This document shows positions 6,254-41,204 of a DNA stretch of 64,000 nucleotides, piece after piece (position 1 is the first letter of the stretch; every line of letters begins with the position of its first letter). The DNA is from Candidatus Omnitrophota bacterium (GTDB lineage Bacteria; Omnitrophota; Gorgyraeia; Pluralincolimonadales; Pluralincolimonadaceae): positions 61,564-125,563 of the forward strand of contig PLNR01000008.1 in assembly GCA_003141835.1 (NCBI GenBank), read 5' to 3'. Under the pieces are notes generated by a model. That model was given only the letters and a program-made list of their open reading frames with translations. It made no database searches and was not told the DNA's origin. A program made the translations under genes and the position numbers.

Positions 6254-6269
6254 TATAGAAGGAGTTTAA

Positions 6270-7052: not shown

Positions 7053-7099
7053 AAGCTTGGCCTTTTAAACACCGGTATGCTATAATAAAAAATGGAGGG

Positions 7100-25203: not shown

Positions 25204-28200
25204 TAATGAAAAAGGTCATCACCTACGTAGCGCTTACATTCCTTTTTATCGCAATACTGTCTTGTAGTTCCCTATTGTGTTGCCGCGCCTATTGTGCCGA
25301 TACCTGGTCATTCGCTGTCATAGGAGACACACGGGACAATGACCCAACTACTACAGGCGTGAGCCAATATCTGCCCGCGATAGCTTCTGCAATGGCCAAT
25401 CCTTCTTCTGTTATCTCCGGCGCAATTACGCCATCCGCGGCCTTCGTTAACGGCGATCTCGTAAACGGCGATAGCGCATTTTACCTCGACTACTCAACCC
25501 AATTCGCGAATTGGAAGACTGCCATGGCGCCACTTGGCAGCATACCCATATACACAGTGCGCGGCAATCACGAAAATGAAGTAACCGATTTATTGCCTAC
25601 GAGCGAAACCTTAAAGACGGCGTATTATAATGCCTTTGGGCCAACCGTTCCCCAGAACGGCCCGAATAACGGCCCAAATGATGACGAGGTGGGATTTACC
25701 TGGAACCTTTCCAGCCTTGACAGCCATATTAACCAAAAATATGTCCGCGTGATCGGGGTGGACCAATACTTTTATTATAATTCAACCGCGCAAGGCACTA
25801 GTCACTATTATCAGATAGACCAGGCGTGGCTGGATCAACAACTTATTCATTCGCCGCCCACGCGGTATACTTTCGTTATGGCTCATGAACCGTCATATTA
25901 TCTGGATAGCGGGGGCGACAATCCTGAGGGCGACTTTTATGGCACTACAAATCCGGATGGTAGTGCAAATCCGGCAGGGGTAGCTGCTCGCGGTGCATTC
26001 TGGAATTCCCTCGGCTCTAACGGCGTAAAGATGTATTTGTGTTGTCATGTGCACAATCTGCAGGTCGGCTATGCTTATGACAGCAATGGAAATAAAATTT
26101 ACCAGAACATGGCAGGTAATGGCGGCGCGCCGTTTGCATCGGCGGGCGCGACGGATCCAAACTTAACAGTCGCCTTTCAGGATTTTTCAGATTATGGATT
26201 TGCCCTTTATACGGTAACCAAAGATAACATCACTATTAACTATTACCTATACAATCCCACTTCGCTTACGTGGAGTATTTCTCCTTATTCCATTACCTTA
26301 GCGGCTGATCCCGTTAATACATGGAATACGACTTCAGGGAACTTTTCCACCGGTACCAATTGGGATATCGGCACTGCGCCGGGTGCAGGGGATACAGCGG
26401 TTTTCAACAACGGCGGCAGCGCGCCATCATCAGTTACTTTTGCGGACGGCAGCGCCACCACTAACAACAAATTGTTTGTAGCCAGCGGCGCGGTTACCTT
26501 CAACCTGGGAAACAACTCTTCATACACAGCAACTACCAGCGCAGCCATAGACGGCAGCTCGGATCCCACCTATCAGCCAAGCCTTGAGATAAAGGGAACC
26601 AATGGTTCAAGTTTTAATACGCCTTTACTGACGATGGACGGGGTTTCATCGTTTAAAGTGGATCCGGGAGCCTCTGCTACTTGCACTACAATTGATATTC
26701 AAGGCGGGACTGCCACTGTTGGAGGGGGAGGAGGTAATATAACGGTGACCAATCTTGTTGTTGACGGCGGCACCTTAGATATCCAATCGTTCGATCAGGC
26801 CGCCAACAATGTCCAGATGACCGGCGGCGCTATCACCGGTACAACTGGAATACTAACCAGCCTGAGTGCGTTCGATATGCAGGCAGGTACAGCCTCCGCC
26901 GTTCTCGCTGGTACGCATGGCCTGAATAAGACTACGGCCGGGACGGTGACGCTCTCCGGGGCCAACACATATTCAGGATTAACGACGATCTCCTCCGGCG
27001 CGTTATCCATTGCCGGCACGAATTCCTTGCCGGGTTGGAACACCAATGGCAGCTATAGTGTTGCCAATGGCGCGACTCTGGCGGTAGGGGATGGCGTGAG
27101 CGAAGCCAATGTTGGCGCCATTGGTACCCCACTCACCATACTAAACACTTCCAACTTCGCAGCCGGAGCGAACATAGGTTTAGATACCTCGGCAGGCAAC
27201 AGGAATTATGCTTCCGTTATCGGGAACACTTCGAACGGCGCGCTGGGTTTAACCAAGATAGGTACCAATACACTTACCCTTTCAGCCACTAACACCTACA
27301 CCGGCGCGACCACGCTGACGGCCGGCACGCTGAGCGCCGGCGCGACCGGAAACCTCGGCGCGGCGGCTTCCAACCTCGTCTTCAACGGCGGTACGCTGCA
27401 GATCACCGGTACGACTTTGACCAATATCTCGGGAATCGGACACACCGTCATAACCAATCCGGGTGAAACCGTCGGGCTGGATATCAACAATGCGGCCAAC
27501 ACATTCACATTCGATCAAGTCCTAAACCAGACGACCGGAGGCCTGACTAAATTGGGCGCGGGCACCTTGGTACTCAATAAAGCCAACACCTACACAGGAG
27601 CCACGACAGTCAGCGCAGGAACGTTACAAGCCGGAGTAGCCGCCCAGGCCTTTGGTAATAACTCGGTCGTGACTTTGAACAATACAGACGGAGGCGGCCT
27701 TAACCTTAATAACTTTAATAATACTATAGGTCCACTCAATGGTGTCGCAACCAGCACCGTCGTCCTCGGTTCAGGGACCCTTATGATCAGCGTCAACGCC
27801 GACACCGACAGAAGCGGTAACTATGTCGGTGTGATTTCAGGAACAGGCGGGCTGACTGTGGCAGGCACATACCCCGGCACACAAGTTTTAACGGGCGCCA
27901 ATTTGTATTCAGGCGTAACCACTATATCCGGCACAAGCACTCTCCAGATCGGTAACGCCGGGACAACAGGCACTCTAGGAACAGGTGCTGTAACAAACAA
28001 TGCTGGGTTGAAGTATAACCGGACTGATGTCGTACCGGCCATAACTAATGTTATCTCAGGAACAGGTACATTTGAACAAGCTGGGACCGGTACCGTAACT
28101 TTAAGAGGCAACAACACCTACACAGGAGCCACGATAGTCAGCGCCGGAACGCTGCAAGCGGATAATGATACTTACTTTGACTCTGTCAAAGGTGTTGGTT

Positions 28201-30011
28201 ATGGGGCTTTTGGTAATCTTTCGGCCGTGACGGTTGCAGTCGGAGCAACGCTGGATGGAAATGGTTATTACCATAATATAGGTTCACTTTCGGGGAGTGG
28301 TAAAGTGACTGAGAGCGATCCGGGCTTCCAATCATCTTTTGTTGTGGGCTGGGACAATTCTTCTACGACCTTTTCTGGAATTATAGAGGATGGCAATGGC
28401 CTAATCGACCTTACTAAAGATGGAAGCGGGACTTTTACTCTTACCGGTGCCAACACATATACCGGAGCTACCGCGATAAACGCAGGAACAGTGGTTGCCG
28501 GTAATGCCAATGCCCTCGGCAACGGATCGGCTGTTACTGTCGGGGCCGGCGGTACTCTCGACGTTGGCACCACCAATGTCACCGTTAATAATACCTATAC
28601 TCAGAACGGGACTCTAAAGGTGACCGTTGCGAGCCCGTCATCTTCCGGTAAGATAACATCCAACGCCAATGCATTTGTAGCCGCAACTAGCAGCGTCAAT
28701 GTCACTGTTGCAAACAGCACCTTCATCCCGAACAACACCACATACACGGTAGTAGACAGTTCAGGCGGAAACAACGTAAACGTCCCCGGCACGATCACAT
28801 CAAGCGATTCGCGTTTGACGTTCTCAGGCATAAGCTCAAACGGAGACCTCATTTTAACAGCTAGCCGCGCCGCAAACGGCTTCTCAAGCTTAGGCACGAA
28901 TTCTAACTCCTCTGCCGTTGGCGCTGTTTTAGATAACATCTCAGCCCCGTCCGGTGATATGTTAACCGTCTTAAATACGCTCGAAGGACTGAGCAATTCG
29001 CAGACAGAGTCAGCCCTTGCCACCTTAGTTCCTGTAGTCGACAGCGGAGTGACCAATGTCAGTAATACCGCCATCAACCAGTTCATGGGGACATCTACCG
29101 ACAGGCTAGGTGGCCTCTTCGCCCAGGCGCATAGCGAAGAGACCGGCGTCTCAACCGGAAGCAAGGGGAGCAGCGGTTTTGAGGCATGGGGCAGGGGATT
29201 CGGTGAATACGCCCACCAGGATCCCAGAGGGCTAAGCAACGGCTATCACGCCACTATCTGGGGCACGGCAATAGGAGCCGATATCCCAATCTTTAACGAC
29301 AAGGCCCGCATAGGCGCCGATGGCGGTTACGCCAGCAGCGGCGTAAATTCAAAAGATAACAGCGGTAAGACCTATATCGACAGCTACCAGTCAACCTTCT
29401 ATGGCGGCTTCACGGATCCCGAGAAACCCTACTACATAAACGGCGCCTTCTCCTTCGCCTATAACACATACAAGGGAAGAAGGAACATAGCCGTAGGCAC
29501 TATCACCAGGACCGCCAACGCAAACTATAAGGGCCAGCAATACTCCGTCTTATTCGACGGCGGATATATCTTTAAGACCAAACAAGTCAATATAACCCCC
29601 ATAGCCTCTATCCAGTACCTGCGCCTAAACCTCCATAGCTACACCGAGACGGGCGCAGATGCTCTCGATTTAAGTGTCAAAGGCCAGGGCTACAACCTAT
29701 TGGAATCCGGCCTGGGCGCAAAGTTCGACCGTCCATTTGAGGTCTCCTACGGCACTATAGCACCCGAGGTCCACGTCCGCTGGTTTTACGATATAATAAC
29801 CGATAAACAATCCACCACGTCTACCTTCGCAGGCGGCGGCGGTTCATTCGCCACCAACGGATTCAATCCCGCGCGCAACGCCTTAAATGTCGGGGGAAAA
29901 ATAGCCCTTCTCACAAAAGGCAACTGGAGCTTTGACGCCAATTACGACTTCGAATACAAACAGGACTTCACTTCCCATACGGGATGGGCGGATATCGCAT
30001 ATAAGTTTTAG
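25200..30011 (+). CDS. giant autotransporter: N-terminal calcineurin-like metallophosphoesterase domain, PATR repeats, C-terminal beta-barrel
   Basis: VRGNHEN and GDxVNGD metallophosphatase motifs; PATR units; C-terminal 520 aa ~87% identical to the preceding autotransporter. Confidence 0.75.
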   Translation: MIMKKVITYVALTFLFIAILSCSSLLCCRAYCADTWSFAVIGDTRDNDPTTTGVSQYLPAIASAMANPSSVISGAITPSAAFVNGDLVNGDSAFYLDYSTQFANWKTAMAPLGSIPIYTVRGNHENEVTDLLPTSETLKTAYYNAFGPTVPQNGPNNGPNDDEVGFTWNLSSLDSHINQKYVRVIGVDQYFYYNSTAQGTSHYYQIDQAWLDQQLIHSPPTRYTFVMAHEPSYYLDSGGDNPEGDFYGTTNPDGSANPAGVAARGAFWNSLGSNGVKMYLCCHVHNLQVGYAYDSNGNKIYQNMAGNGGAPFASAGATDPNLTVAFQDFSDYGFALYTVTKDNITINYYLYNPTSLTWSISPYSITLAADPVNTWNTTSGNFSTGTNWDIGTAPGAGDTAVFNNGGSAPSSVTFADGSATTNNKLFVASGAVTFNLGNNSSYTATTSAAIDGSSDPTYQPSLEIKGTNGSSFNTPLLTMDGVSSFKVDPGASATCTTIDIQGGTATVGGGGGNITVTNLVVDGGTLDIQSFDQAANNVQMTGGAITGTTGILTSLSAFDMQAGTASAVLAGTHGLNKTTAGTVTLSGANTYSGLTTISSGALSIAGTNSLPGWNTNGSYSVANGATLAVGDGVSEANVGAIGTPLTILNTSNFAAGANIGLDTSAGNRNYASVIGNTSNGALGLTKIGTNTLTLSATNTYTGATTLTAGTLSAGATGNLGAAASNLVFNGGTLQITGTTLTNISGIGHTVITNPGETVGLDINNAANTFTFDQVLNQTTGGLTKLGAGTLVLNKANTYTGATTVSAGTLQAGVAAQAFGNNSVVTLNNTDGGGLNLNNFNNTIGPLNGVATSTVVLGSGTLMISVNADTDRSGNYVGVISGTGGLTVAGTYPGTQVLTGANLYSGVTTISGTSTLQIGNAGTTGTLGTGAVTNNAGLKYNRTDVVPAITNVISGTGTFEQAGTGTVTLRGNNTYTGATIVSAGTLQADNDTYFDSVKGVGYGAFGNLSAVTVAVGATLDGNGYYHNIGSLSGSGKVTESDPGFQSSFVVGWDNSSTTFSGIIEDGNGLIDLTKDGSGTFTLTGANTYTGATAINAGTVVAGNANALGNGSAVTVGAGGTLDVGTTNVTVNNTYTQNGTLKVTVASPSSSGKITSNANAFVAATSSVNVTVANSTFIPNNTTYTVVDSSGGNNVNVPGTITSSDSRLTFSGISSNGDLILTASRAANGFSSLGTNSNSSAVGAVLDNISAPSGDMLTVLNTLEGLSNSQTESALATLVPVVDSGVTNVSNTAINQFMGTSTDRLGGLFAQAHSEETGVSTGSKGSSGFEAWGRGFGEYAHQDPRGLSNGYHATIWGTAIGADIPIFNDKARIGADGGYASSGVNSKDNSGKTYIDSYQSTFYGGFTDPEKPYYINGAFSFAYNTYKGRRNIAVGTITRTANANYKGQQYSVLFDGGYIFKTKQVNITPIASIQYLRLNLHSYTETGADALDLSVKGQGYNLLESGLGAKFDRPFEVSYGTIAPEVHVRWFYDIITDKQSTTSTFAGGGGSFATNGFNPARNALNVGGKIALLTKGNWSFDANYDFEYKQDFTSHTGWADIAYKF
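28440..30011 (+). repeat. ~1.57 kb repeat, copy 2 of the autotransporter C-terminal region (copy 1 at 23389..24958)
   Basis: Long colinear near-identical DNA, about 87-90% identity. Confidence 0.85.
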
Positions 30012-30034
30012 TATATAAAAGGTGAGTTGATAGC

Positions 30035-30364
30035 ATGAGGATCTGGGATATAGCGCCCGGAAGGTTATGCCGCAACCATCTCTTGGGCGAGCACAGGGAA
30101 CTCCACGCCATCTGGTCTGTCCTGACGCGCAACAAGAAGGGGTATTCCCGCCATCCCGAGACCTTAAGGTGGAAGGGCAGGTTAAAGGCGCTGTATTCAA
30201 GGCACACGAAGCTCGTCAACGAACTTAAACGGCGTGGCTACCTCCACCACAGCCCTCTTGATTCCCGGCTGGCGAAAGGGAAGGGGAGGCAGACGCGGTT
30301 CGTCAATTCAGTCGGCGAACAGATCAAGATTTTGAGCAGGAAAAACTGCGGCTGTAAGATTTAA
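30035..30364 (+). CDS. pyrimidine-dimer DNA glycosylase (T4 endonuclease V-like) family protein, putative
   Basis: N-terminal MRIWDIAPGRLCRNHLLGEHRELHAIW resembles T4 DenV MTRINLTLV...HLMAEYRELPRV. Confidence 0.5.
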   Translation: MRIWDIAPGRLCRNHLLGEHRELHAIWSVLTRNKKGYSRHPETLRWKGRLKALYSRHTKLVNELKRRGYLHHSPLDSRLAKGKGRQTRFVNSVGEQIKILSRKNCGCKI

Positions 30365-30377
30365 TAGGTAAGGCCAT

Positions 30378-30465
30378 TAAAATAATCATAACCCTCTGCG
30401 ATTATAACTGTTGCAGGGGATTTTTATTAAGAGTAGAATTAATCCTAACGAGGCGTTCCAAAGTT
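30378..30465 (+). repeat. direct repeat A (~85 bp, includes a terminator hairpin) after the glycosylase-like gene
   Basis: taaaataatcataaccctctgcgattataactgttgcaggggatttttattaagagtagaattaatcctaacgagg; about 92% identical to repeat B. Confidence 0.8.
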
Positions 30466-30520
30466 ACTCGCTCCAAGAATTAATTTCATTGGTTACGGAG
30501 AAGAGGAGATTTAGAAAATT

Positions 30521-31057
30521 ATGAAATACGTGACCGCTATGTTCGATTGGATAATGAGAAATAAGGAATGGATCTTTAGCGGTGTTGGAGTCGTGCTCAT
30601 AGGGTGGTTGGTCTTGGCGGTGCGCAGGTTTTTATTCATGCGACGAACTTCAAGTTCGTTGATTGAAGGGGCGACTCTTAGAGAAATAATCGAGAGTCCT
30701 GCGGTTGTGTCATCATCCGACATCGCCAACTTAACTTCTTCTCTTACCCCGAAGCAAATCATTGAAAATATAAAGGCTCTTCCGCTCCTCCAACAGCAGG
30801 ATGCCGGCAAACACTATATTGGTCTTGCTGTGAAATGGGATGGAGAGCTTGCCGATGCGAGGAAAATAGCTGAGAATTCGGTACAACTTTATATCTTACA
30901 CGGCTCAAGCAGTACAGGCTTTTTTTTAAAGGTTAACCCAAGCGACTATCCTGGGCTTAGTCTTCTAAAGAAAGGGGCTCATGTTGAGGTAGATGGCCTG
31001 ATTGAGGAAGCAGGAGCAATGTGGGTGACGCTTAATAACGCGCACATTCGCTTTTAG
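30521..31057 (+). CDS. hypothetical protein with N-terminal TM anchor
   Basis: 178 aa, low GC, one TM helix, then a soluble domain. Confidence 0.5.
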   Translation: MKYVTAMFDWIMRNKEWIFSGVGVVLIGWLVLAVRRFLFMRRTSSSLIEGATLREIIESPAVVSSSDIANLTSSLTPKQIIENIKALPLLQQQDAGKHYIGLAVKWDGELADARKIAENSVQLYILHGSSSTGFFLKVNPSDYPGLSLLKKGAHVEVDGLIEEAGAMWVTLNNAHIRF

Positions 31058-31087
31058 TATTTACTCAGCACATTATTTATGTAGGGC

Positions 31088-31150
31088 AATAAGGGACGTG
31101 TCAAAAAGGGACAGGTCGCATAAACAGAGTGTCCCAAAGTGACACGTCTC
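31088..31150 (+). promoter_or_regulatory. nested-palindrome leader element, copy 1
   Basis: GGACGTGTCA-aaaa-GGGACAG-N15-TGTCCC-aaag-TGACACGTC, preceded by TAATAAGG; ends about 35 nt before the RBS of 31187. Confidence 0.6.
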
Positions 31151-31186
31151 CGAAAAACCCATACCTTGGCATAAAGGAGGTGCTTA

Positions 31187-31591
31187 ATGAATATTCCGGA
31201 AAAAGAACAGTATAAATACCTTACTCACCATCTTGAATATCTTAATGATAAGATTCTAGGATCGTTTGAATTATTCATTAAACTCGCTACGGCAATTATC
31301 GGTGGTGTATTTCTTCTTCATTGGAAACTTGCAGAGAACCATAATAATGGAGATTCACTTGTTTTGATGTCTGATATGCTGTTTTGCATTGTCGGCGTAA
31401 GTATCATAGCCCTTATATGGATTAATCTTTGTGCTTGGCGATCATATCGAAAAACTCTCTCTAAAGAATATCCAGCTATTAAGCTTTCGAATCCTTTCTT
31501 ATGGTGGATAGGTGAAGCCATAATGAGTTTACTTATAATTATAACGTGTATATTATTTTGTCTCTTAAATCCTCTGAATAGTTTTTGTTAG
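31187..31591 (+). CDS. hypothetical multi-TM membrane protein
   Basis: 134 aa with 3 predicted TM helices. Confidence 0.5.
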   Translation: MNIPEKEQYKYLTHHLEYLNDKILGSFELFIKLATAIIGGVFLLHWKLAENHNNGDSLVLMSDMLFCIVGVSIIALIWINLCAWRSYRKTLSKEYPAIKLSNPFLWWIGEAIMSLLIIITCILFCLLNPLNSFC

Positions 31592-31595
31592 AGTA

Positions 31596-31658
31596 ATAAG
31601 GGGACGCGTCAAAAAGGGACAGGTTGCATAAGCAGAGTGTCCCAAAGTGACACGTCCC
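31596..31658 (+). promoter_or_regulatory. nested-palindrome leader element, copy 2
   Basis: One substitution relative to copy 1; precedes the RBS of 31694. Confidence 0.6.
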
Positions 31659-31693
31659 CAAACGCATAAAATCGCGCAAAAAGGGAGGTTGGA

Positions 31694-32287
31694 ATGAAAA
31701 GGGCGATAGTAATTTTTTTGGTAGCGTCATGTTTTCTTGAAGGTTGTGCATCTTATCATGCGGGGCTTTTGCCATCAAAAGATGTAATGAATTATGATAA
31801 TAAGCAAGTTCAAAATAACGTTTATGTCGTAGCAAAATTTTTGAATGCAAGAGAAACAAAACAAGTCTTTCAATTTGATCTAGAAAATAAGGGTATCCAG
31901 CCCACTTTTATTGTTATGGATAACAGAAGTCCTAAAACCTACGATTTCAAAAAATCAGACATAAATAAACAGATAATGTCTTCGCAAGAGGTAGCTGATA
32001 AATGCAAATTTAGTACTGTCGGACGAGCAACAACTTATGGAGTAGTGGGATTATTCATTTGGCCATTCTTAATTCCAGCAGTAGTCGATGGCGTAGGATC
32101 ATCGGAGGCGAACAGAAAAATTGAAGACGATTATGCTTATAAAGAATTGCAGGATGGAAGATTAATGCCAAATGCTCTCATGAACGGAGTTGTTTTCGTG
32201 TCTAAAATGAAAGAAGGAGAGGATTTTACCATAAGATTAAAAGATGTTGATACAAATGAAATTCTAAGATTTAGTTTTCAGAAGTGA
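31694..32287 (+). CDS. hypothetical lipoprotein
   Basis: Signal peptide with an FLEGC lipobox. Confidence 0.5.
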   Translation: MKRAIVIFLVASCFLEGCASYHAGLLPSKDVMNYDNKQVQNNVYVVAKFLNARETKQVFQFDLENKGIQPTFIVMDNRSPKTYDFKKSDINKQIMSSQEVADKCKFSTVGRATTYGVVGLFIWPFLIPAVVDGVGSSEANRKIEDDYAYKELQDGRLMPNALMNGVVFVSKMKEGEDFTIRLKDVDTNEILRFSFQK

Positions 32288-32335
32288 GTCACATTAGGTC
32301 GCATAAGCAGAGCGTCCTAAAGTGACACGTCCTCA
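32287..32335 (+). promoter_or_regulatory. nested-palindrome leader element, copy 3 (5' arm truncated)
   Basis: ggtcgcataagcagagcgtcctaaagtgacacgtcc matches the 3' half of copies 1 and 2. Confidence 0.5.
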
Positions 32336-32377
32336 AAATTAACCACGAAGAAACGCTATAATTAAAAGGTGTGAGAT

Positions 32378-33316
32378 ATGACTTTAATAATGTCAGCTAT
32401 TACCTCCTCGGGTATCGTTCTAACTGCCGATAGTAGACAGTCCTATAAAAATGGAGCAGGGGCAATTCGCATTGGTTCTGATAATGCATTGAAGCTTTTT
32501 AAGCTTTCCGATTATATTGGAGTTTCTATTTCAGGTAAAGCCTTTCTTAATGGGGAAAACCAATCGGTCAAAGACGTCGGATATTTTATTAATAAATTTA
32601 AACAAACAGAGGATCTAAAAGAACTAACAATCCGAGATGTTGCTAATAAACTAAATAAATATCTCGGTGACCTTTTTGTTGAGAAAGAAAGAGTATCTTT
32701 GAAAAAGCTTATTGAGGAACAAGTTACAAAGCTTGGTGGTAAAGATTTAGTTTTTCTTCCAATGGACGATTCTTTGGTTCCATATTCATATAAAGATAAG
32801 GACGGCAAGGTGATTTCAAATACAGCAATGATTGAGACAATTAATATGATTGTGGCAGGCATTGATAAGGACAAGGTAGGAAGAGCTTACTCAGTTTGGG
32901 TTCCTAAAGGGATAACGCTGGAAAAAGATACTCAGCTGTGCGGTGCTTTGTGGTGCGGTCAGAATGATGTTATCATTCGAATTGTCAAAGGATTTACACT
33001 GGAGATAGAAAAACTTAATTTTATAAAAGAGGCTCTAGCAAAAGATAACGCCTCAACTATCAGCCAGCTAAATAAAATGGAGTACATTATTAATTGGGGA
33101 ACAATGACCATCCAAGATGCGATAGATTTTTGCGTATTAATGACCCGTACTACCGAAAGCATACAGAGGTTTTCTGATGGTACCTTTTTACAACCTGGTG
33201 GTATTCCCGGCGTTGGTGGGGAGATTGATATAGCTGTTATTACACCTGAAAAAGGATTCCGTTGGCTTAAAAAGAAAAAATTGGAATCTGAGGGGGAAGA
33301 GCTTTCTTTAGAGTAA
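32378..33316 (+). CDS. proteasome-beta/HslV-like Ntn-hydrolase family protein with a C-terminal extension
   Basis: Thr directly after the initiator Met. GIVLTAD with Asp at position 17 of the Met-processed protein. KLFKLSDYIGVSISGKA parallels proteasome-beta KKIFKIDDHIGVAFAG. Confidence 0.5.
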   Translation: MTLIMSAITSSGIVLTADSRQSYKNGAGAIRIGSDNALKLFKLSDYIGVSISGKAFLNGENQSVKDVGYFINKFKQTEDLKELTIRDVANKLNKYLGDLFVEKERVSLKKLIEEQVTKLGGKDLVFLPMDDSLVPYSYKDKDGKVISNTAMIETINMIVAGIDKDKVGRAYSVWVPKGITLEKDTQLCGALWCGQNDVIIRIVKGFTLEIEKLNFIKEALAKDNASTISQLNKMEYIINWGTMTIQDAIDFCVLMTRTTESIQRFSDGTFLQPGGIPGVGGEIDIAVITPEKGFRWLKKKKLESEGEELSLE

Positions 33317-33363
33317 GAATGGAATATCAGCAAAATAGAATATAATAAGGAACGTGGGCGATA

Positions 33364-33430
33364 GGGGACGTGTCAAAAGGGCAAGGTCCCTTCGCAAAGG
33401 GAGACAGGTTATAAAAATGACACATGACAG
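33364..33430 (+). promoter_or_regulatory. nested-palindrome leader element, copy 4 (diverged)
   Basis: GGGGACGTGTCAAAAGGG ... TGACACATGACA, preceded by TATAATAAGG. Confidence 0.5.
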
Positions 33431-33436
33431 ATCTAA

Positions 33437-34072
33437 ATGAGTAAACCTGAAGAGGAATCAAGCGAAGTAAAAAATAGCAGCCGGAATATTCTTATACTTG
33501 ACGTATTGGGCATGGCTGTTATATTTATTCTTTTTATGATTGTTCGTGACAAATTTGGGCAAATTTTTAAAGAAATGGACGTGCCTGCAACGTTATCTTA
33601 TAGAATATTAATCGAACCCCACCCTGTCGTGCTTATTGTCGAATTCATTATAATCATAGCCATTCTCATTCTTAAAGAGAGAGTAATAAGGAATAAAAGC
33701 ATAACGTATTATATTAATAGCATAATTTTAGTAGTATTAGTTTTATCTATTCTCTTTTTCGGATATTCTGCTTTTTTCTTGCCCTTGATTCCTCTAATTA
33801 CGGAACTACAATCAAGGTCCAGTTTTTTCGATAAGTTCGGGTATCTTTTTAGTTATAATATAGTTGTTCCGTTAGTCATCTTAATAGCCGGCTTAATAAT
33901 ATTTATTAAGCCGGTTTCTTGTATCGAGCTCCAAAAAAAGTTTTACGAAAAGATCAACTGGCGCATGGAGCCGATCAATATGGAAATGGAGATCAGAAAT
34001 ACAAAAATCATGGGCTTATTTTTAGTCGGCGCATCCCTAGCAACAATTGTCTATTTTTTGATTAAAGGATAA
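33437..34072 (+). CDS. hypothetical multi-TM membrane protein; C-terminal 70 aa duplicate the 24979..25203 product
   Basis: 211 aa; C-terminal ...IFIKPVSCIELQKKFYEKINWRMEPINMEMEIRNTKIMGLF... Confidence 0.55.
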   Translation: MSKPEEESSEVKNSSRNILILDVLGMAVIFILFMIVRDKFGQIFKEMDVPATLSYRILIEPHPVVLIVEFIIIIAILILKERVIRNKSITYYINSIILVVLVLSILFFGYSAFFLPLIPLITELQSRSSFFDKFGYLFSYNIVVPLVILIAGLIIFIKPVSCIELQKKFYEKINWRMEPINMEMEIRNTKIMGLFLVGASLATIVYFLIKG

Positions 34073-34074
34073 TA

Positions 34075-34395
34075 ATGGAAAAAATTATTGGACAAGCGGG
34101 TAATCTAAACGATTTGGTAGCTTATCAGGAAGGCTCAATCGTAAGCAAAGAGATAATAAAAAAGGACATAGGCACGGTAACCCTTTTTGCCTTTGACAAG
34201 GGGCAGGGGTTGAGCGAACACACCGCGCCGTTTGATGCCCTGGTTTATATCTTTGACGGCGAAGCGGAAATAATGATTTCCGGCCTGCCACATCATTTAA
34301 AGGCAGGCGAGATCATCATAATGCCTGCGAATAAGCCGCACGCCTTAAAAGCGATAGAACGTTTCAAGATGATGCTGGTTATGATTAGGTCTTAA
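34075..34395 (+). CDS. cupin domain protein
   Basis: 106 aa small-barrel cupin pattern (G...H.H....E...V..G). Confidence 0.55.
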   Translation: MEKIIGQAGNLNDLVAYQEGSIVSKEIIKKDIGTVTLFAFDKGQGLSEHTAPFDALVYIFDGEAEIMISGLPHHLKAGEIIIMPANKPHALKAIERFKMMLVMIRS

Positions 34396-34407
34396 AGAGA
34401 AAAGTCT

Positions 34408-34495
34408 TAAAAATAATCATAACCCTCTGCAATTATAACTGTTGCAGAGGGTTTTTGTTAAGAGTAGAATAAATCCCAACGAGGTCTTACAAAGT
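34408..34495 (+). repeat. direct repeat B (~85 bp) with a perfect 10-bp-stem terminator hairpin
   Basis: CCCTCTGCAA-ttataact-gTTGCAGAGGG plus TTTTT, then ttaagagtagaataaatcccaacgagg. Confidence 0.8.
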
Positions 34496-34525
34496 GGCGC
34501 ATATTCAAAACCATAAGCGTGCTTA

Positions 34526-35248
34526 ATGTTGAGAGTGCCCCGATTTTTAAATAGACTTGCAATTGGTTTTAATAGTGATAGAATCAAAGAAAAAGGAGCA
34601 CAGATGGGCGTCAAGAAGAATTTATGGTTGTTTGTATTTAATGTTGTCTGCCTAGTTATTGCTATTGTTTTGTGTAGTGGGTTTATGTATTATTTTTGCG
34701 TAGCGAACCCATCTAACATTGTTTATGCAAAAGAAGATAGTTCCGCGGAGAAGGTTGAATTAAATAAACAGGAAATTAGTAAATTACAGAAGGATGATTT
34801 AAGTAATCAGGACTCTAAACAATCGGCAGTTGTTGAGGAGAAAACCGATAAGACTACGGTTTCCCTCGTTTTAAATAAAGAGAATGAAGCAATTATAAAA
34901 AATATGGAACGACGTAATAGTTTTCTCGAATTTTATATAGGGCAGATTATAAGCTTTTATCAACAAGTTATTACTTATTTATTAGGAGTAATTGGTGTTT
35001 TATTAGTCATCAGCTTTATGTATATACGTTTTACGTCTAAGCAACAAACTGAGGAGATGGCAAATGAAGCATTGAACTCAAAATCCTTCCAGATAATTCT
35101 ACAAAATCTGGTTAAGAAAGAATATGCTGAAGCGTTAAAATCAGGTGATTTTGTGGAAATGTCTAGTAAAATACCTGATTTAGCTGATAGGGTAACTGAG
35201 CTTGAGAAGATAATGAACGCAAAAGATGATGATGAAATTCAGGAATAG
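34526..35248 (+). CDS. hypothetical membrane protein with coiled-coil segments
   Basis: Two TM helices and K/E-rich regions. Confidence 0.45.
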   Translation: MLRVPRFLNRLAIGFNSDRIKEKGAQMGVKKNLWLFVFNVVCLVIAIVLCSGFMYYFCVANPSNIVYAKEDSSAEKVELNKQEISKLQKDDLSNQDSKQSAVVEEKTDKTTVSLVLNKENEAIIKNMERRNSFLEFYIGQIISFYQQVITYLLGVIGVLLVISFMYIRFTSKQQTEEMANEALNSKSFQIILQNLVKKEYAEALKSGDFVEMSSKIPDLADRVTELEKIMNAKDDDEIQE

Positions 35249-35257
35249 GGGTGAAAA

Positions 35258-35812
35258 ATGGGAATAATTAGAGAGAAATGTTTTGCTCCTGACTGTTCTA
35301 TCGCATCTAGCAATATTGATTTATATGATACTCCGGAGAAATTATTTGCTTTTGCAAGTTCTCAAGGCATTCCTACTGTGCCTTTAGACGTAGAGAAATT
35401 AGCCAATAAAATGGGTATCAAAATAGAATACGCTGATTTTCCAAATGATTTATCGGGGGAACTTATCAAGGATCCGGCAACTAATCATTGGGTTATCTAT
35501 GTGAATAAAAATCATCATATTAATAGGCAAAGATATACTATCGCACATGAAATAGCTCATTTTTGTCAGCACAGGCACTTGAAATATAGATTTGAAGACG
35601 AAATATTTTTTAGGGGTGGTGAATCATACGACAAGGAAGAAACGGAAGCAAATAATTTCGCTAGTTCTATACTTATGCCAGAACAAGAATTTAAAACTAA
35701 AGTTCGTTCGGGAATTAGGAAAATAGAAGAATTAGCTGGGATATTTAAGGTCTCAACCTTAGCCCTAAGAATAAGGGCAAAAAATCTCGGCATGTCAGGA
35801 CACGGGTTATGA
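35258..35812 (+). CDS. ImmA/IrrE family metallo-endopeptidase
   Basis: HEXXH at IAHEIAHF with the downstream Glu typical of COG2856; ATGA overlap with the next gene. Confidence 0.75.
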   Translation: MGIIREKCFAPDCSIASSNIDLYDTPEKLFAFASSQGIPTVPLDVEKLANKMGIKIEYADFPNDLSGELIKDPATNHWVIYVNKNHHINRQRYTIAHEIAHFCQHRHLKYRFEDEIFFRGGESYDKEETEANNFASSILMPEQEFKTKVRSGIRKIEELAGIFKVSTLALRIRAKNLGMSGHGL

Positions 35813-36894
35813 AGAATATATCATATGCTCCGATAATAAAAACTAGTGATGCGGAAATCAGGGGGATTGAAAACCTTGATGATGACGATAAGGATGGAAT
35901 TACTCCAATTTTTGAATTGACAAAATCAAGAAAATCAAAATATCTTCCTCAGGGTGATATATATAGAAGGCTAGAAAAGCTTAAAGATGTATTTGGTGCT
36001 AGGCGTTTCATATTAGATTTAACAAGTGATCGTAATTCTATAAATGAACAAATTGAAGAATTGCAAGATAATCATGGCGGATATAAAAATTGGATTGATT
36101 TCCTAATTTTGCAAAAGAATGATTTTCCTGAATTAATACCAACAATACAGATTACTGATAAGGGAGTTAAGACTGAAGAAGAATTGTATAATAGAGTTAA
36201 GGTACAGGTTGAAGCGTTAAACAGGAATTTTGCCGAAGTTGCTTACAGGTTTCCTTTGGAATATGAAGATTTTACGACCGACCTCAAGCATATAATTGAT
36301 AATATCTCTAAAGATAAAATTATTTGTATCGTTGATGCTGGATTCATTACGCAAGGGAAATCAGGAATCTATATAACAAAAGCAAGGAGTGTTATTGCAG
36401 AAGTAAAAAAATTTGGGATTAAAAATATAATATTATCAGCTACTTCCTTTCCAAGGAATCCGACTCAATACGGCGGTGAGGAGACAGGAGAGTGCCAATT
36501 AGAAGAGTGTTTATTTTATAATGGCGCAAGAGAAGAAAAATCTAATATCAGTTTTATCTATGGAGATTATGCCACGATTAATCCGATAAGAAGCGATCAA
36601 GCAGGTGGCAATGGATGGGTTCCGAGAATAGATATGCCTACAGAAGATGAACTTTTTTATTATAGATCTAGAAAACGCAAGCAAGAATTGACATATGCTA
36701 ACGCTTATACAAGAGTCGCACACTCTGTGGCTAGCGACCAAAGATATAAAAATATAAAGAAAAAAATCAGGGATTGCTGGGGAATTGAGCAGATTGAATT
36801 AGCCGCAAAAGGCACCCCAGAAGGATTATCACCATCCTTCTGGATCTCAGTTAGAATGAACATCCACATAACAATAAAAAATAAAATGCATTAA
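35809..36894 (+). CDS. Beta family protein (T4 beta-protein-like; sce7725-like)
   Basis: N-terminal YAPIIKTSDAEIRGIENL...ITPIFELTKSR and RRFILDL fit my recollection of the Beta_protein N-terminal pattern; 361 aa. Confidence 0.55.
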   Translation: MKNISYAPIIKTSDAEIRGIENLDDDDKDGITPIFELTKSRKSKYLPQGDIYRRLEKLKDVFGARRFILDLTSDRNSINEQIEELQDNHGGYKNWIDFLILQKNDFPELIPTIQITDKGVKTEEELYNRVKVQVEALNRNFAEVAYRFPLEYEDFTTDLKHIIDNISKDKIICIVDAGFITQGKSGIYITKARSVIAEVKKFGIKNIILSATSFPRNPTQYGGEETGECQLEECLFYNGAREEKSNISFIYGDYATINPIRSDQAGGNGWVPRIDMPTEDELFYYRSRKRKQELTYANAYTRVAHSVASDQRYKNIKKKIRDCWGIEQIELAAKGTPEGLSPSFWISVRMNIHITIKNKMH

Positions 36895-37523
36895 ACATAT
36901 AACTTATCAATTATTCCGCATAAACCTCGTAAATCATCCCATACGATTTTTCCTTCGGTATCCCTCAAGAGAAGCCTAAAAAGTTTATAGTAACGTTTCT
37001 TAAGATATGAATAAGCAGCTGTGCGGATTTTACTTGTGGTCAGCTGGTGGCTAAGCTTTTCCCGTATTTCATCTGTAGATAGCTTTCGGATATTTCTTGA
37101 GGTGCATAGGCTGAGCAGTTCAATCTTAGGCAAGAATATCAAAAGAGAACGCTTATCCAATTTTTTATTTAATCTCGCTATTTTTATAACCTTAAATTTA
37201 TCGTTATTAAATAGAATTAGTCCGGTGTTTTGAGTAATAATATTTTTAATCTTGTTAACATTCTTTATAGTGGTTATTACAGATACTTTGTCAAATGTAT
37301 TATGATAATCGTTTAGCTGCATTTTAAGTTTTCTTGGATCGTCAGAATCACTTTTTATTTCAAGGGTATGTGTTTTGTTTGAAATAATTAATAAGTCGGC
37401 TTTTCGCCTATTAGCAGAAAACAAAACTTCAGTAGCAATAGCATCCTTCGACTTATTAAAATTAAGATTGCCCCTTAATAACCATCTTATTGCTTTTGTT
37501 TTTATTAGTTCTGCTTTATCCAT
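36891..37523 (-). CDS. sce7726-like putative PD-(D/E)xK nuclease-fold protein
   Basis: RKADLLIIS...LEIKSDSD D-(x)n-E-x-K pattern; convergent with the Beta gene, stops overlapping by 4 bp. Confidence 0.5.
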   Translation of the reverse strand: MDKAELIKTKAIRWLLRGNLNFNKSKDAIATEVLFSANRRKADLLIISNKTHTLEIKSDSDDPRKLKMQLNDYHNTFDKVSVITTIKNVNKIKNIITQNTGLILFNNDKFKVIKIARLNKKLDKRSLLIFLPKIELLSLCTSRNIRKLSTDEIREKLSHQLTTSKIRTAAYSYLKKRYYKLFRLLLRDTEGKIVWDDLRGLCGIIDKLYV

Positions 37524-38134
37524 AGTTAAATGTTATCTCGCAATAATATAAAAATAATACGATCGAATATCCTTGTTGTATTTTTTGTTTTTTTAGTAAC
37601 CGATATTATACTTTAATTTAATAAAATATTCACTACAAGAGGTAATTGTGATGGTAGGCTACCTGCAATGTGTTAGTCCCAAAGGTCAAATGCATAATCT
37701 TGTGAGAATAAAGTTGTTTAAGAACAGGGCGCCGATAGTAAGAGCTAAGTTACCTTATGCCTTCACAAAGAAGTGAAAGCACTTGGCGTTCTTAGGGTAG
37801 ATTACTCTACCGTTCCGCCGAATGTATCGGCAGTACACCTCAACGCCAGGAGTTAATCCCGAACCGCGGTTATCCCGCTTTTCAGCATTAAACCTTCGTT
37901 GCATACTTTTGTCTCCTTTCCGGGGGCTAATTTTTACCTTACGCAACCCCTCAAAAAGAAGAAAATAAGATTAAGAAAATGATTTCAGGAGGGGGGTAAG
38001 TAGGAAATTAGCCTAGAAAAGAAGACATCGTAGCCCCGGAGATTTTGCTCCTTAGTTTGTCCTACCGGCACCCAAAGAACAAGTTTCTATGCTATAAATA
38101 CTACAAATTAGTCGTAAAGTCAATCTAAAAATTC

Positions 38135-38163
38135 TTGACACCCACACAAATGTGTGGTATACT
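38135..38163 (+). promoter_or_regulatory. lexA promoter TTGACA-17-TATACT with a CCACACA-aa-TGTGTGG palindrome in the spacer (candidate SOS box)
   Basis: Consensus -35, perfect 7-bp inverted repeat at 38142-38157, -10 ending 7 nt before the ATG at 38171. Confidence 0.55.
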
Positions 38164-38170
38164 CCTGCCT

Positions 38171-38719
38171 ATGAAACCCCAAGTAGAATTAACCGCCAAG
38201 CAAGAGAAGGTCCTGAAATTTATCCGCGAAAGAGTGGGGGAGAACCTGCCTCCGACCATAAGGGAGATAGCAGGGGAGATGGGCTTTGCTTCCACAGGAA
38301 CGGTTAGGGATTATCTTGCGGCGCTTCAAAGAAAGGGTTACCTCAAACGCGAAAATAACAAATCCCGGGGCATAGCGTTAATAGGAAGTATTGCGGCCGG
38401 GGAGCCGAAATTGGCCTATGAAGATATCGAGGGCTATGTCGAGATCGCCCGGGAGAATACCTTTGCCTTGAAGGTCAAAGGCGAAAGCATGATAGACGCC
38501 GGCATTATGGACGGCGACATAGCGGTCATCAGGAAACAGAAGACGGCCGATAACGGCGATATCATCGCCGCGTTACTGGACAATAACGAAGTCACCTTAA
38601 AAAGACTCAAGACCGGCGGCGGCAAGCCATTCCTGGAAGCAGCGAACAAGAAATATCCCCCGATACATAAAGAATTCAGCATCATAGGCAAACTTGTCAA
38701 TATAGTAAGAAAATATTAA
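38171..38719 (+). CDS. lexA: LexA repressor
   Basis: N-terminal wHTH (MKPQVELTAKQEKVLKFIRE), S24 peptidase GESM Ser and downstream Lys; start moved to a typical LexA Met. Confidence 0.85.
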   Translation: MKPQVELTAKQEKVLKFIRERVGENLPPTIREIAGEMGFASTGTVRDYLAALQRKGYLKRENNKSRGIALIGSIAAGEPKLAYEDIEGYVEIARENTFALKVKGESMIDAGIMDGDIAVIRKQKTADNGDIIAALLDNNEVTLKRLKTGGGKPFLEAANKKYPPIHKEFSIIGKLVNIVRKY

Positions 38720-38722
38720 GCG

Positions 38723-39055
38723 ATGGCGATATCAGGCTTCAACCCAAAGGCGCGCTGGGACCGACACCCTCTTGGCAGAGGGCAAGCTATCCCCGAGACC
38801 GAAGACAGTGTCGACCCCGGGATACTGGACGAAAAGATAGAAGTCCTGGCATATTTCAAGGGCTCAGCGATATTTCCCCGCGCGTTCATCCGCAATAACA
38901 AGGTCCACAGGATAAAAAAGATCACCTATAACTGGCAGGAACGCCGCGGCCGGGAGGTCCTGAACCTGTTTTCGGTGGACACCGGGACCTGCCTCTACCA
39001 GATATCATTTAATAACACGACCTACCGCTGGCAGATCGACAAGATAATAGCATGA
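38723..39055 (+). CDS. hypothetical 110-aa protein between lexA and dinB (possible polymerase accessory factor)
   Basis: Operon position only; no recognisable motif. Confidence 0.45.
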   Translation: MAISGFNPKARWDRHPLGRGQAIPETEDSVDPGILDEKIEVLAYFKGSAIFPRAFIRNNKVHRIKKITYNWQERRGREVLNLFSVDTGTCLYQISFNNTTYRWQIDKIIA

Positions 39056-40227
39056 TCCTGCACATAGACATGGACGCTTTTTTCGCGTCCGTTGAACAGG
39101 CCATCAACCCGCGGCTTAAAGGCAAGCCCCTGATAGTGGGCACGCGCGAAAGGAAGCTCCACACGGTCGTTTGCGCGGCCAGTTATGAAGCCAAGGCCTT
39201 AGGGATAGGCTCAGGGATGTCTTCTGAGGAGGCCTTTAAAATATGCCCGGACCTCAATTTTGTCCCGGCAGAACAAAGCAAGTATATATGGACCTCGGGC
39301 CGGATATTGGAGCTCATCAAGGGATACGGGTTCGAGACCGTATATGTTTCGATAGATGAGTTCCAAATTGATGTAGGGGATCAGGGACAGTCCCCAAATG
39401 GGGGCTGTCCCTCTTACGCCGTGGCTTTGGCCGAAGATATCCGCAGCAAAATACACAAAAACTTCAACATCACAGCTTCCGTAGGCATAGCGAAAAATTG
39501 CCTCCTTGCCAAACTCGCCTCAAAGTTAAACAAGCCAAACGGTGTAGCTGTTTTGACCGAAGCCAATTTAGCCGAAATTTTGGCCAAAACACCGGTCGAA
39601 AAATTATGCGGGGTGGGGGAAAAGACAGCCGAAATCTTCCATGATTTGGGCATCAAAACCTGCCTGGACCTGTACGCCAAAACGCCCAAATTCCTGGAGC
39701 GGAATTTAGGCAAGAACGGGCTCAATCTTTACGCGTCTTTGCATTCCGAAGAGTCGCTTGAGCCGGCTGATGATGACCCGGATCCAAAATCCGTAGGCCA
39801 TTCATATACCTTGCCGAGATCCACAGAAAATCCCGGGTTTATCCGCGCCTGGATACGCCTTTTGGCCGATATGGTCGGTGAGCGCCTAAGGCAGCAAGGC
39901 CTGGCAGCAGCGACAACACACCTATGGCTGAACGGGCCAAAAATAGGCAATTTTGGGGCCCAAAAGACATTCCCGGAAGCCACTAATGACGGCTGTGAGA
40001 TATTCCGGAGAGTACTTGTTAATATGTCCAAATTAGGGCCGCAAACGCCCAAAACAAGAGCTTTAGGCGTAACCTGCAGTAGTTTCACACATACCAGGTA
40101 TTTGCCTTTATTTGACCAACAGAAGAGCCGGGAATCGCTCCTGGAGGCGGTAGACAGGATCAATGACCGCTACGGAGACGGCTCGATTTATCCCGCCGCG
40201 ATCACTTTAACCAGGGAAATGCCTTAA
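39052..40227 (+). CDS. dinB: Y-family DNA polymerase IV
   Basis: MILHIDMDAFFASVEQ with catalytic Asp pair; SIDE catalytic Glu. Confidence 0.8.
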   Translation: MILHIDMDAFFASVEQAINPRLKGKPLIVGTRERKLHTVVCAASYEAKALGIGSGMSSEEAFKICPDLNFVPAEQSKYIWTSGRILELIKGYGFETVYVSIDEFQIDVGDQGQSPNGGCPSYAVALAEDIRSKIHKNFNITASVGIAKNCLLAKLASKLNKPNGVAVLTEANLAEILAKTPVEKLCGVGEKTAEIFHDLGIKTCLDLYAKTPKFLERNLGKNGLNLYASLHSEESLEPADDDPDPKSVGHSYTLPRSTENPGFIRAWIRLLADMVGERLRQQGLAAATTHLWLNGPKIGNFGAQKTFPEATNDGCEIFRRVLVNMSKLGPQTPKTRALGVTCSSFTHTRYLPLFDQQKSRESLLEAVDRINDRYGDGSIYPAAITLTREMP

Positions 40228-40295: not shown

Positions 40296-40814
40296 ATGGG
40301 TAAGTTGATTATACATAAGGTAATAGAACAGAAGATATTCGTAATAAGGGGAAAGAAAGTAATCGTTGATAGGGACCTGGCTGAGCTTTACGGAGTAGAA
40401 ACAAAGCACTTAAATAGACAGGTAAGGAGAAATATCGACCGTTTTCCAGAAGAGTTCATGTTTCAACTTACCGAGAACGAGAAAAAGGAACTGGTGACAA
40501 ATTGGCACCAGTTTAAGCCATTAAAGCATTCATACGTGCTGCCATATGCTTTTACGGAACATGGAGTAACTATGGCGGCTATGGTATTAAACAGCGACAC
40601 GGCCATAAGGGTAAGTGTTTTTATAGTAAAGACTTTTATCAAACTCCGCGAGATTATCGCCACTCAGAAGGAATTAATGACTAAGTTCGGCGAGCTTGAG
40701 CTAAGGGTAGATAAGCATGACAAAGATATCTTAAATCTGATCAGAGTCATCAAAGAGTTATTAGAGCCGAAATTCGAGGAAAAGCCGAGGCGGAAGATAG
40801 GGTTTTATCCCTAA
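40296..40814 (+). CDS. ORF6N (KilA-N-like) domain DNA-binding protein
   Basis: IRGKKVIVDRDLAELYGVETKHLNRQVRRNIDRFPEEFMFQLT and LPYAFTEHGVTMAA match the ORF6N consensus. Confidence 0.75.
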   Translation: MGKLIIHKVIEQKIFVIRGKKVIVDRDLAELYGVETKHLNRQVRRNIDRFPEEFMFQLTENEKKELVTNWHQFKPLKHSYVLPYAFTEHGVTMAAMVLNSDTAIRVSVFIVKTFIKLREIIATQKELMTKFGELELRVDKHDKDILNLIRVIKELLEPKFEEKPRRKIGFYP

Positions 40815-40833
40815 AGGACGGATTTTTCATGGC

Positions 40834-40870
40834 TTGACATAATGTATCAAATATGATACATTTGTTATAG
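40834..40870 (+). promoter_or_regulatory. promoter region with a 9-bp inverted-repeat operator (AATGTATCA-aata-TGATACATT) upstream of the XRE regulator
   Basis: TTGACA at 40834 and the palindrome at 40842-40863. Confidence 0.45.
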
Positions 40871-40892
40871 GCATGAAAGGAGGTGCATTAAC

Positions 40893-41162: not shown

Positions 41163-41204
41163 AGGCTTGACAGGCTAGAGAGGGTGTGATATAGTTCTAT
41201 CACT

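Follow-up and report, generated by a model that had tools for sequence, protein, structure and literature searches.

A composite AT-rich segment beside lexA in an Omnitrophota bacterium contains a probable four-gene relative of the anti-phage systems gop-beta-cII and PD-lambda-2

An AT-rich segment of ten genes upstream of lexA

We analysed a stretch of 64,000 nucleotides of DNA from a Candidatus Omnitrophota bacterium (contig PLNR01000008.1; hereafter the window), and in particular a segment of about 7 kb that is markedly poorer in GC than its surroundings and lies between a gene for a Pyr_excise glycosylase on its left and lexA, a 110-aa gene (p110) and dinB on its right. The segment consists of ten open reading frames (ORFs), encoding three membrane proteins, a lipoprotein, a proteasome-like hydrolase (ntn312), a cupin, a protein with two transmembrane (TM) helices (TM214), an M78 peptidase, a Beta protein and a protein of the cII/sce7726 family (Table 1). 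The last four of these genes, at 34544-37539, form a cassette that we read as a relative of two known anti-phage systems, gop-beta-cII of P4 and PD-lambda-2.

An original prediction had described this segment as a low-GC island of ten genes, carrying two families of repeats and being the best candidate in the window for an undescribed conflict or defence system. Its account of the composition agrees with our measurements in 500-nt windows and at third codon positions (GC3). Mean GC is 0.355 (standard deviation 0.027, thirteen windows) over 31000-37500, versus 0.509 (standard deviation 0.038, 111 windows) outside 30000-38200, a drop corresponding to z = -4.0 and a Mann-Whitney p of 4e-9. GC3 of the island genes is 0.27-0.37, versus 0.55-0.74 in the flanking autotransporter, Pyr_excise, lexA, p110 and dinB genes, with intermediate values in two island genes, p178 (0.475) and the cupin gene (0.514). 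The number of genes was also right, as were the guesses of a proteasome-like protein, a cupin, an ImmA/IrrE protein, a Beta protein and a PD-(D/E)xK-like protein.

No integrase, transposase or tRNA gene is present at the edges of the segment, again as predicted; the sole tRNA gene of the window is at 51630-51706. Pfam detected no recombinase domain in the ten larger ORFs scanned between 10.7 and 25 kb, and four serine recombinases taken from homologous loci had no tblastn match anywhere in the window. On the right, homology to the most similar copy of the cassette (in contig L103; L-numbers such as L083, L103 and L129 are labels of the loci fetched for comparison) stops at 37539, and conservation among relatives starts again at 38135. 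Because 12 relatives conserve lexA-p110-dinB (38135-40227) together with its promoter-operator, TTGACAnCCACACAAATGTGTGGTATA, host sequence resumes at 38135. We conclude that the AT-rich 7-kb segment is real and foreign.

Table 1. Genes, repeats and the right-hand gap of the AT-rich segment, with the cassette genes given first
Feature	Position	Strand	Description	Value
TM214	34604..35248	+	2-TM protein, 214 aa, first cassette gene; C-terminal helical, coiled-coil-like tail	
M78	35258..35812	+	M78 (ImmA/IrrE, CapP-like) zinc metallopeptidase, 184 aa, lacking an HTH (helix-turn-helix) domain	Peptidase_M78 E 1e-21
Beta	35809..36894	+	Beta protein, PF14350, sce7725 type, 361 aa	PF14350 E 6e-53
cII	36891..37523	-	cII/sce7726 family protein, 210 aa, putative PD-(D/E)xK nuclease	NCBIfam sce7726 E 5e-30
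p178	30521..31057	+	N-terminal TM anchor and soluble C-terminal domain	GC 0.456
p134	31187..31591	+	Multi-TM protein	GC3 0.27
lipo197	31694..32287	+	Lipoprotein, 197 aa, signal peptide and Cys18	
ntn312	32378..33316	+	Proteasome-beta/Anbu-fold N-terminal-Thr hydrolase, 312 aa	
tm211	33437..34072	+	Multi-TM protein, 211 aa	
Cupin	34075..34395	+	Single-domain cupin, 106 aa	Cupin_2 E 3e-9
D1 copy a	31084-31160	+	Between p178 and p134	Minimum free energy (MFE) -32.5 kcal/mol, z = -6.9
D1 copy b	31592-31668	+	Between p134 and lipo197	MFE -36.4 kcal/mol, z = -8.1
D1 copy c	32296-32337	+	3' half only; L129 homology stops at its right arm, 32332	
D1 copy d	33356-33389	+	5' half and divergent inner hairpin, between ntn312 and tm211	
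D2 copy 1	30379-30453	+	Immediately follows the Pyr_excise stop codon and marks where the AT-rich segment starts on the left	
D2 copy 2	34410-34484	+	After the cupin gene, between cargo genes and cassette	z = -4.2
Gap	37524..38134		Gene-free, 611 nt, between cassette and host lexA promoter; contains the right edge of the island	

A four-gene cassette that travels as a unit

The cassette opens with the gene for TM214, whose start is most likely 34604 rather than 34526, judging from the ribosome-binding site and an alignment of homologues. Weak promoter-like sites lie downstream of the D2 terminator. The second protein matches capP best among the PADLOC profiles (E 1e-34) and PD-Lambda-2_B more weakly (E 1.6e-7), and the residues H97-E98-x-x-H101, H105 and E128 are invariant in its family. 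The start of the Beta gene overlaps the M78 stop codon by 4 nt, and its product matches the PADLOC profile 'beta' (E 3e-49) as well as PD-Lambda-2_C (E 7e-21 and 1e-19). Beta is confidently predicted to form a TIM barrel, with invariant R41, D70, R147, D176, S213 and D253 in or just after the predicted strands.

The cII gene is convergent with the Beta gene, with an overlap of 4 nt, and its protein matches the PADLOC profile 'cll' (E 1e-26). Residues E32, D43 and E55-x-K57 are invariant in 12 sequences, as is Q69, and members of the family show weak matches to Hjc, HSDR_N_2, MmcB-like and NERD domains; a comparison of cII with PDB sequences gave no match. The residue pattern putatively fits a PD-(D/E)xK nuclease.

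The same four genes recur elsewhere. Contig L103, from Omnitrophota, shares DNA homology with the window over exactly 34544-37539, at 76.6% nucleotide identity, and the four proteins co-vary, being 56% (TM214), 73, 76 and 80% identical to their counterparts there. Among metagenome loci with a Beta relative (27-52% identity), all 11 have M78 upstream and a convergent cII downstream, and in at least nine of these 11 the gene immediately preceding M78 is a 2-TM ORF of 185-212 aa. More broadly, such an ORF (177-221 aa) is found ahead of M78 in L092-L100, L102, L103-L108 and viral loci. Three more distinct contexts (L103/104, L105/106 and L107/108) contain the same four genes amid unrelated housekeeping genes, and in L105 the bare four-gene cassette sits between housekeeping genes. 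The cassette is also present in 11 of 16 IMG/VR loci. The form with a TM protein and M78 is widespread: it is present in candidate phyla (Omnitrophota), in viral contigs and in contigs of human-gut metagenomes.

Among the loci measured, the cassette has a lower GC than its flanks or, at most, the same (for instance, 0.36 versus 0.62 in L102 and 0.29 versus 0.49 in L093). A large serine recombinase adjoins cII in both L103 and L092, whereas there is none in the window. Within our segment, 34544-37539 is the only part that travels as a unit, and it is a self-contained four-gene cassette.

The most distant Beta loci lack M78. Five of them from IMG/VR (L120-L124) have a gene for a cI-like HTH protein directly upstream of Beta, and Pasteurella phage Pmp11 (L131, OR544128) has a CI repressor gene followed by a 131-aa gene, Beta and a convergent 260-aa gene, again with no M78. 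In the plasmid and phage collections, detectable relatives of Beta are found only in P4, in Pmp11 and in three plasmids. Since distant Beta loci lack M78, Beta and cII look like a conserved core, and the partners ahead of this core differ among the loci compared: Gop; a TM protein and M78; HigB and an HTH-M78 fusion; or a cI-like repressor. This picture is drawn from the window and about 30 related loci, and it gives experimenters a comparative handle.

Relation to known anti-phage systems

Two systems with Beta-like components have been tested experimentally. The gop-beta-cII system protects Escherichia coli against the phages lambda and P1 (Rousset et al. 2022, PMC9122126); in the absence of beta, gop is toxic (Ghisotti 1990, as cited in Rousset et al. 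2022, PMC9122126), and the phage gene orf184 triggers the system (Silas et al., bioRxiv 10.1101/2023.04.06.535777). PD-lambda-2 consists of a HigB-like protein A, an Xre-HTH-M78 fusion B and a protein C (Vassallo et al. 2022, PMC9519451). On its own B is toxic, and defence depends on C, which is described as 'related to a P4 phage antitoxin' (PMC9519451). In the literature that we searched, we found no paper giving a mechanism for Beta-cII systems.

The likeness to P4 extends over both sequence and layout. In BLASTP comparisons, Beta and cII of the window share 28% (E 3e-34) and 29% (E 1e-18) identity with P4 beta and P4 cII, respectively. In P4 (NC_001609), gop (133 aa) and beta (355 aa) are on the plus strand and cII (264 aa) is convergent with them, so that in both cases a partner gene and beta share one strand while cII faces them. 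The first gene in both encodes a small 2-TM protein with a helical tail, and both systems are compact, mobile and AT-rich.

There are also several differences. The first gene of the window cassette has no detectable similarity to Gop: the PADLOC search of this gene, run with its 240-aa ORF, gave no match of any kind, and an hhalign comparison of the TM family with Gop returned a probability of 0.4%. BLASTP, too, was negative for the TM protein, and M78 likewise has no similarity to Gop. The 2-TM protein is therefore best regarded as a positional and architectural analogue of Gop, and as a putative membrane effector by that analogy. Unlike P4, the window has an M78 gene between the membrane protein and Beta; its cII lacks the C-terminal extension of P4 cII, which accounts for a protein of 210 rather than 264 aa; and Beta and cII overlap by 4 nt, whereas a terminator separates beta and cII in P4. 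Finally, the P4 system belongs to an enterobacterial satellite, whereas the window host is a member of the Omnitrophota.

With PD-lambda-2 the cassette shares the combination of an M78 (ImmA/IrrE) peptidase with a Beta-like protein. PD-lambda-2 is a toxin-antitoxin-like system that acts by abortive infection. The two differ in their components, in that the cassette lacks a HigB-like A component (PD-Lambda-2_A had no PADLOC match at E <= 0.01 among the ten island proteins), and the membrane protein and nuclease-like cII of the window are not among the three PD-lambda-2 components. Moreover, PD-lambda-2 B has about 400 aa with a fused Xre HTH, whereas the window M78 has 184 aa and no HTH by Pfam, and matches only the peptidase part of PD-Lambda-2_B (profile positions 291-366 of 402). 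By bit score, the window Beta is also nearer to P4 beta (165) than to PD-lambda-2 C (73).

The M78 protein further resembles the peptidases of the CapH/CapP and ImmR/ImmA (IrrE/DdrO) switches, given that capP is its best single PADLOC match and that the set of HExxH and E residues is intact. The capP match covers profile positions 11-152 of 242, and the C-terminal part of the model has no counterpart in the window protein. In contrast to these switches, the window has no adjacent CapH or ImmR-type HTH repressor (neither Pfam nor PADLOC detected an HTH gene in 34396-37523), and no CBASS (a system of anti-phage signalling through cyclic oligonucleotides) or other regulated operon is present besides the cassette itself.

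Considered together, these comparisons place the cassette as a new architectural variant, with a TM protein and M78 attached to a Beta-cII core, of a known and validated defence family. Because P4 gop-beta-cII and PD-lambda-2 are experimentally validated anti-phage systems, this is a known family and not an undescribed kind. The prediction of an undescribed conflict or defence system thus holds insofar as the segment ends in a defence-type module, but the word 'undescribed' does not stand, since Beta and cII are homologous to P4 gop-beta-cII.

Unrelated cargo upstream of the cassette

The six genes upstream of the cassette are unrelated cargo and not parts of the cassette system. A PHROG search of the six proteins gave nothing meaningful. 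The first, p178, has no Pfam, NCBIfam or PHROG match, and its one weak PADLOC match (PDC-M43A, E 4.7e-4) is confined to the TM helix. No family match was found for p134 in Pfam, NCBIfam, PADLOC or PHROG. The protein tm211 appears to combine two small-protein families in one fusion: its residues 1-125 match proteins that are mostly about 120-140 aa long, and its residues 140-211 match membrane proteins of mostly about 75-100 aa, which belong to a separate and far larger family. The lipoprotein lipo197 has about 90 homologues, and all those with an organism name are from Omnitrophota or a related metagenome-assembled genome; in L130 the gene is in a different context, after two tRNA genes.

A closer relative of the window, ENA ERZ1426817, was found via this lipoprotein, which is 92% identical there. 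Its gene order is a 386-aa, a 224-aa and a 278-aa gene, lipo197, a 213-aa TM gene, a 106-aa cupin gene, a 253-aa gene and lexA, followed by a 103-aa gene, dinB and genes for an inositol phosphatase, a PilZ protein, a GH57 protein and an alginate-export-like protein. It has no ntn312, M78, Beta or cII. Because lipoprotein and cupin are both upstream of lexA in ERZ1426817, they are long-standing at this position in the lineage. The empty site that the original prediction had expected, with lexA next to the glycosylase gene, was seen in no relative.

The gene ntn312 has a different history. Its Thr2, Asp18 and Lys39 align with the catalytic Thr1, Asp17 and Lys33 of the proteasome, and we detected 619 homologues at 50-90% identity, most of which have no Pfam Proteasome match. 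Unlike Anbu and proteasome beta subunits, ntn312 has a long helical insertion and a C-terminal extension, and neither the partners of the Anbu operon nor HslU are found near it. Homology to other loci is limited to the ORF (32376-33328), and in all five other distinct contexts examined the gene is solitary. Neighbours of its homologues include a restriction-modification cluster (L083-85), a methylase fragment (L086), mobile-element genes (L088-91), an integrase-excisionase element (L125) and, nearby, a serine recombinase (L127). No relatives were found in viral contigs by single-sequence or profile search. We conclude that ntn312 is a single-gene insertion relative to the close relative ERZ1426817 and a solitary mobile gene elsewhere, and it may be a stand-alone conflict gene. 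The ntn312 homologues are richer in AT than their flanks. Near the homologue in L083 there is also an autotransporter related to those of the window.

Two repeat families in the segment

The two predicted repeat families, D1 and D2, are indeed present, and within the 64-kb window they occur in the island only. The D1 hairpin, about 65 nt long, is present in the spacers ahead of p134, lipo197, ntn312 and tm211, although two of these four copies are half-copies. Its outer stem has 11 bp and is followed by an internal loop; the inner stem has 6 bp and carries a variable loop. In D2, which is 75 nt long, a terminator hairpin with a T-run leads into a tail of about 35 nt that is conserved, and the two copies are 92% identical. 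The hairpins of these intrinsic terminators are at 30393-30419 in copy 1 and at 34421-34453 in copy 2, the latter being strong.

Beyond the window, both families were seen in L129. This locus has a third D2 copy, upstream of its lipoprotein gene, and D1 copies at 877-942, 1744-1781 and 2449-2478; neither family was found in any other fetched locus, and no D1-like hairpins flank the homologues of ntn312 elsewhere. The DNA of L129 is 91% identical to the window over 31667-32332, a stretch beginning just 3' of one D1 hairpin and closing at the end of the following one, so that the homology breaks at D1 hairpins on both sides of lipo197. In the slot after lipo197, L129 encodes a 213-aa membrane protein that is not homologous to tm211, and a further match, in the cupin region, has 93% nucleotide identity over 98 nt. 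D1 could thus represent recombination sites or, equally, conserved intercistronic RNA elements at which homologous exchange resolves. A motif scan found the attC cores RYYYAAC and GTTRRRY in none of the spacers that contain D1.

Interpretation and alternatives

We estimate a probability of roughly 0.75 that the segment is a composite of separately acquired genes, placed just upstream of lexA-p110-dinB in a slot that varies between strains, and that within it 34544-37539 is a four-gene relative of P4 gop-beta-cII and PD-lambda-2, acting as a toxin-antitoxin-like abortive-infection module, and the six upstream genes are unrelated cargo. What the analysis itself shows is homology, a gene order that is conserved and inherited together, complete catalytic motifs and predicted folds; the assignment of function and mechanism draws on homology, by which the cassette probably acts through abortive infection. 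Several points weigh against this interpretation. Identity to the P4 proteins, from which the function is read, is 27-29%. The first gene lacks detectable similarity to Gop, so that the idea of an effector is an analogy; the M78 peptidase has no HTH partner; and the toxic part of PD-lambda-2 is the M78 fusion, not a membrane protein. The mechanism of gop-beta-cII and PD-lambda-2 is itself unsolved. In addition, the 253-aa gene of ERZ1426817 might be a homologue of the TM gene, in which case the insertion would comprise only three genes. Finally, DinB identity reaches no more than 64% in the genome collection (the closest matches are mostly labelled Omnitrophota), a distance that precludes a strict strain-level empty-site comparison for the cassette.

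Other explanations concern either the segment as a whole or the role of its parts. Were the low GC a local quirk, caused by membrane-protein bias or relaxed selection and not by horizontal transfer, then the several genes that encode AT-rich hydrophobic proteins would be a natural source of it; but the soluble enzymes M78, Beta, cII and ntn312 have the same low GC3 (0.27-0.31, versus 0.55-0.74 in the flanks), homologues elsewhere are AT-richer than their flanks or at most equal in the loci measured, and the genes are absent from relatives. Synteny and GC3 already contradict this explanation, and we give it almost no credence. The view in the original prediction, of a single-event island of 7 kb with one undescribed ten-gene conflict or defence system, can point to uniformly low GC over 31-37.5 kb, to nine of ten genes on one strand with short spacers, and to repeat families confined to the segment. 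Yet only 34544-37539 is inherited together elsewhere, and ntn312 travels alone, being solitary in five of five other distinct contexts. A relative without ntn312, M78, Beta and cII already has lipo197 and the cupin, the gene in the slot after lipo197 varies between strains, an intrinsic terminator (D2) splits the segment, and p178 and the cupin gene are of intermediate GC. Synteny and the extent of DNA homology led us to reject a single coherent island, and a ten-gene system of this kind is very improbable. As a caution for annotation, a compositional island need not be one system.

The arrangement of D1 raises a different idea, namely that the segment is an integron-like array without an integrase, resembling a CALIN (cluster of attC sites lacking an integron-integrase), in which D1 copies would be attC-like sites and each gene a captured cassette. 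Like integron arrays and CALINs, the segment has co-oriented genes separated by similar imperfect hairpins, with slot contents that vary between strains and repeats specific to the locus and its close relatives. D1 hairpins stand at four consecutive gene junctions, with a succession of outer stem, internal loop, inner stem and variable loop; the window and L129 cease to be homologous at the ends of these hairpins while the slot contents differ; and the absence of D1 from ntn312 and lipo197 homologues elsewhere would parallel the species-specific attC sites of chromosomal integrons. Unlike such arrays, however, the D1 spacers lack both attC cores, the ORFs scanned in the window include no integrase (the neighbours being Pyr_excise, autotransporters and lexA), and there are only four copies, two of them halves. 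The pattern would moreover be accounted for by RNA hairpins between cistrons, or by conserved spacers at which homologous recombination takes place. We thus consider a CALIN-like array quite improbable, and an integrase-less gene-capture array with D1-delimited slots, together with ntn312 as an undescribed stand-alone conflict or defence gene, likewise improbable. As for the cassette itself, it could instead be an addiction or stabilisation (toxin-antitoxin) module, or the regulatory switch of a decayed mobile element, maintained by selfish persistence and not for anti-phage activity. This would accord with the behaviour of gop and beta as a toxin-antitoxin pair (PMC9122126), with the ImmA/IrrE/CapP peptidases being regulators that cleave repressors, those of the ImmA type normally derepressing mobile elements, and with the occurrence of the cassette beside serine recombinases (L103 and L092) and in viral contigs. 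On the other hand, both homologous systems that were tested give protection against phage, no HTH repressor is present as a substrate in or beside the cassette, and in L105 the cassette stands as a bare four-gene unit between housekeeping genes. Such a role seems to us unlikely.

If the cassette is indeed an abortive-infection module related to gop-beta-cII and PD-lambda-2, it might operate as follows. TM214, M78 and Beta would be transcribed together, which their order, spacing and overlapping codons would fit. Beta would restrain a toxin, which could be the membrane protein, the protease or both, as P4 beta restrains Gop, until a phage product upset the balance between Beta and toxin, the effect that orf184 has on the E. 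coli system. M78 and TM214 might then arrest or kill the cell, and cII could add a nuclease or DNA-sensing activity. M78 is a candidate for the trigger or switch. Although P4 beta is usually called an 'antitoxin', the TIM-barrel model suggests that it may be an enzyme instead, and in this model the conserved residues of Beta resemble the active site of an enzyme.

The lexA region and flanking sequences

A palindromic box, CCACACAAATGTGTGG, lies between the -35 and -10 elements of the lexA promoter (38135-38163), and is kept in 12 of 12 relatives, which are mostly labelled Omnitrophota. It occurs once in 64 kb and is probably the SOS (LexA) box of the lineage. We considered SOS control of the island and rejected it, since in the window this LexA box is found only at the lexA promoter. 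Because the cassette is in unrelated contexts elsewhere and there is no LexA box inside the island, its adjacency to lexA-dinB is probably incidental. A conserved 110-aa gene is always found between lexA and dinB.

Between the cassette and lexA, the minus strand of 37640-37960 is predicted to be strongly structured (MFE -106.8 kcal/mol, z = -4.9 versus shuffled sequences), compared with z = -1.1 for the plus strand. There was no Rfam match in 29900-38300, nor in 37524-38140 at a relaxed threshold, and the structured stretch is not beside cII in L103, which has the closest homologous cassette. The minus strand of 37640-37960 could represent a structured cII leader, a non-coding RNA of unknown type or a remnant of host sequence.

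To the left of the island, two large autotransporters with PATR repeats are encoded in tandem at 22124-24958 and 25200-30011, and the second of these (1603 aa) also has an N-terminal metallophosphatase domain. In three more distant loci that are labelled Omnitrophota (L006, L007 and L009), homologues of the window genes at 36-10739 lie directly upstream of lexA; compared with these loci, the window has about 27 kb of additional material (10.7-38.1 kb), of which the AT-rich 7 kb is a part.

On the other side of the SOS operon, 40296-41546 is a second strain-specific patch of lower GC (0.40-0.45). Its genes encode an ORF6N-domain protein (PADLOC candidate PDC-S05, E 2.6e-56), an 89-aa Xre-type HTH protein and a 113-aa ArsR-like protein. 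This patch is absent in ERZ1426817, where dinB is directly followed by the inositol-phosphatase and PilZ genes.

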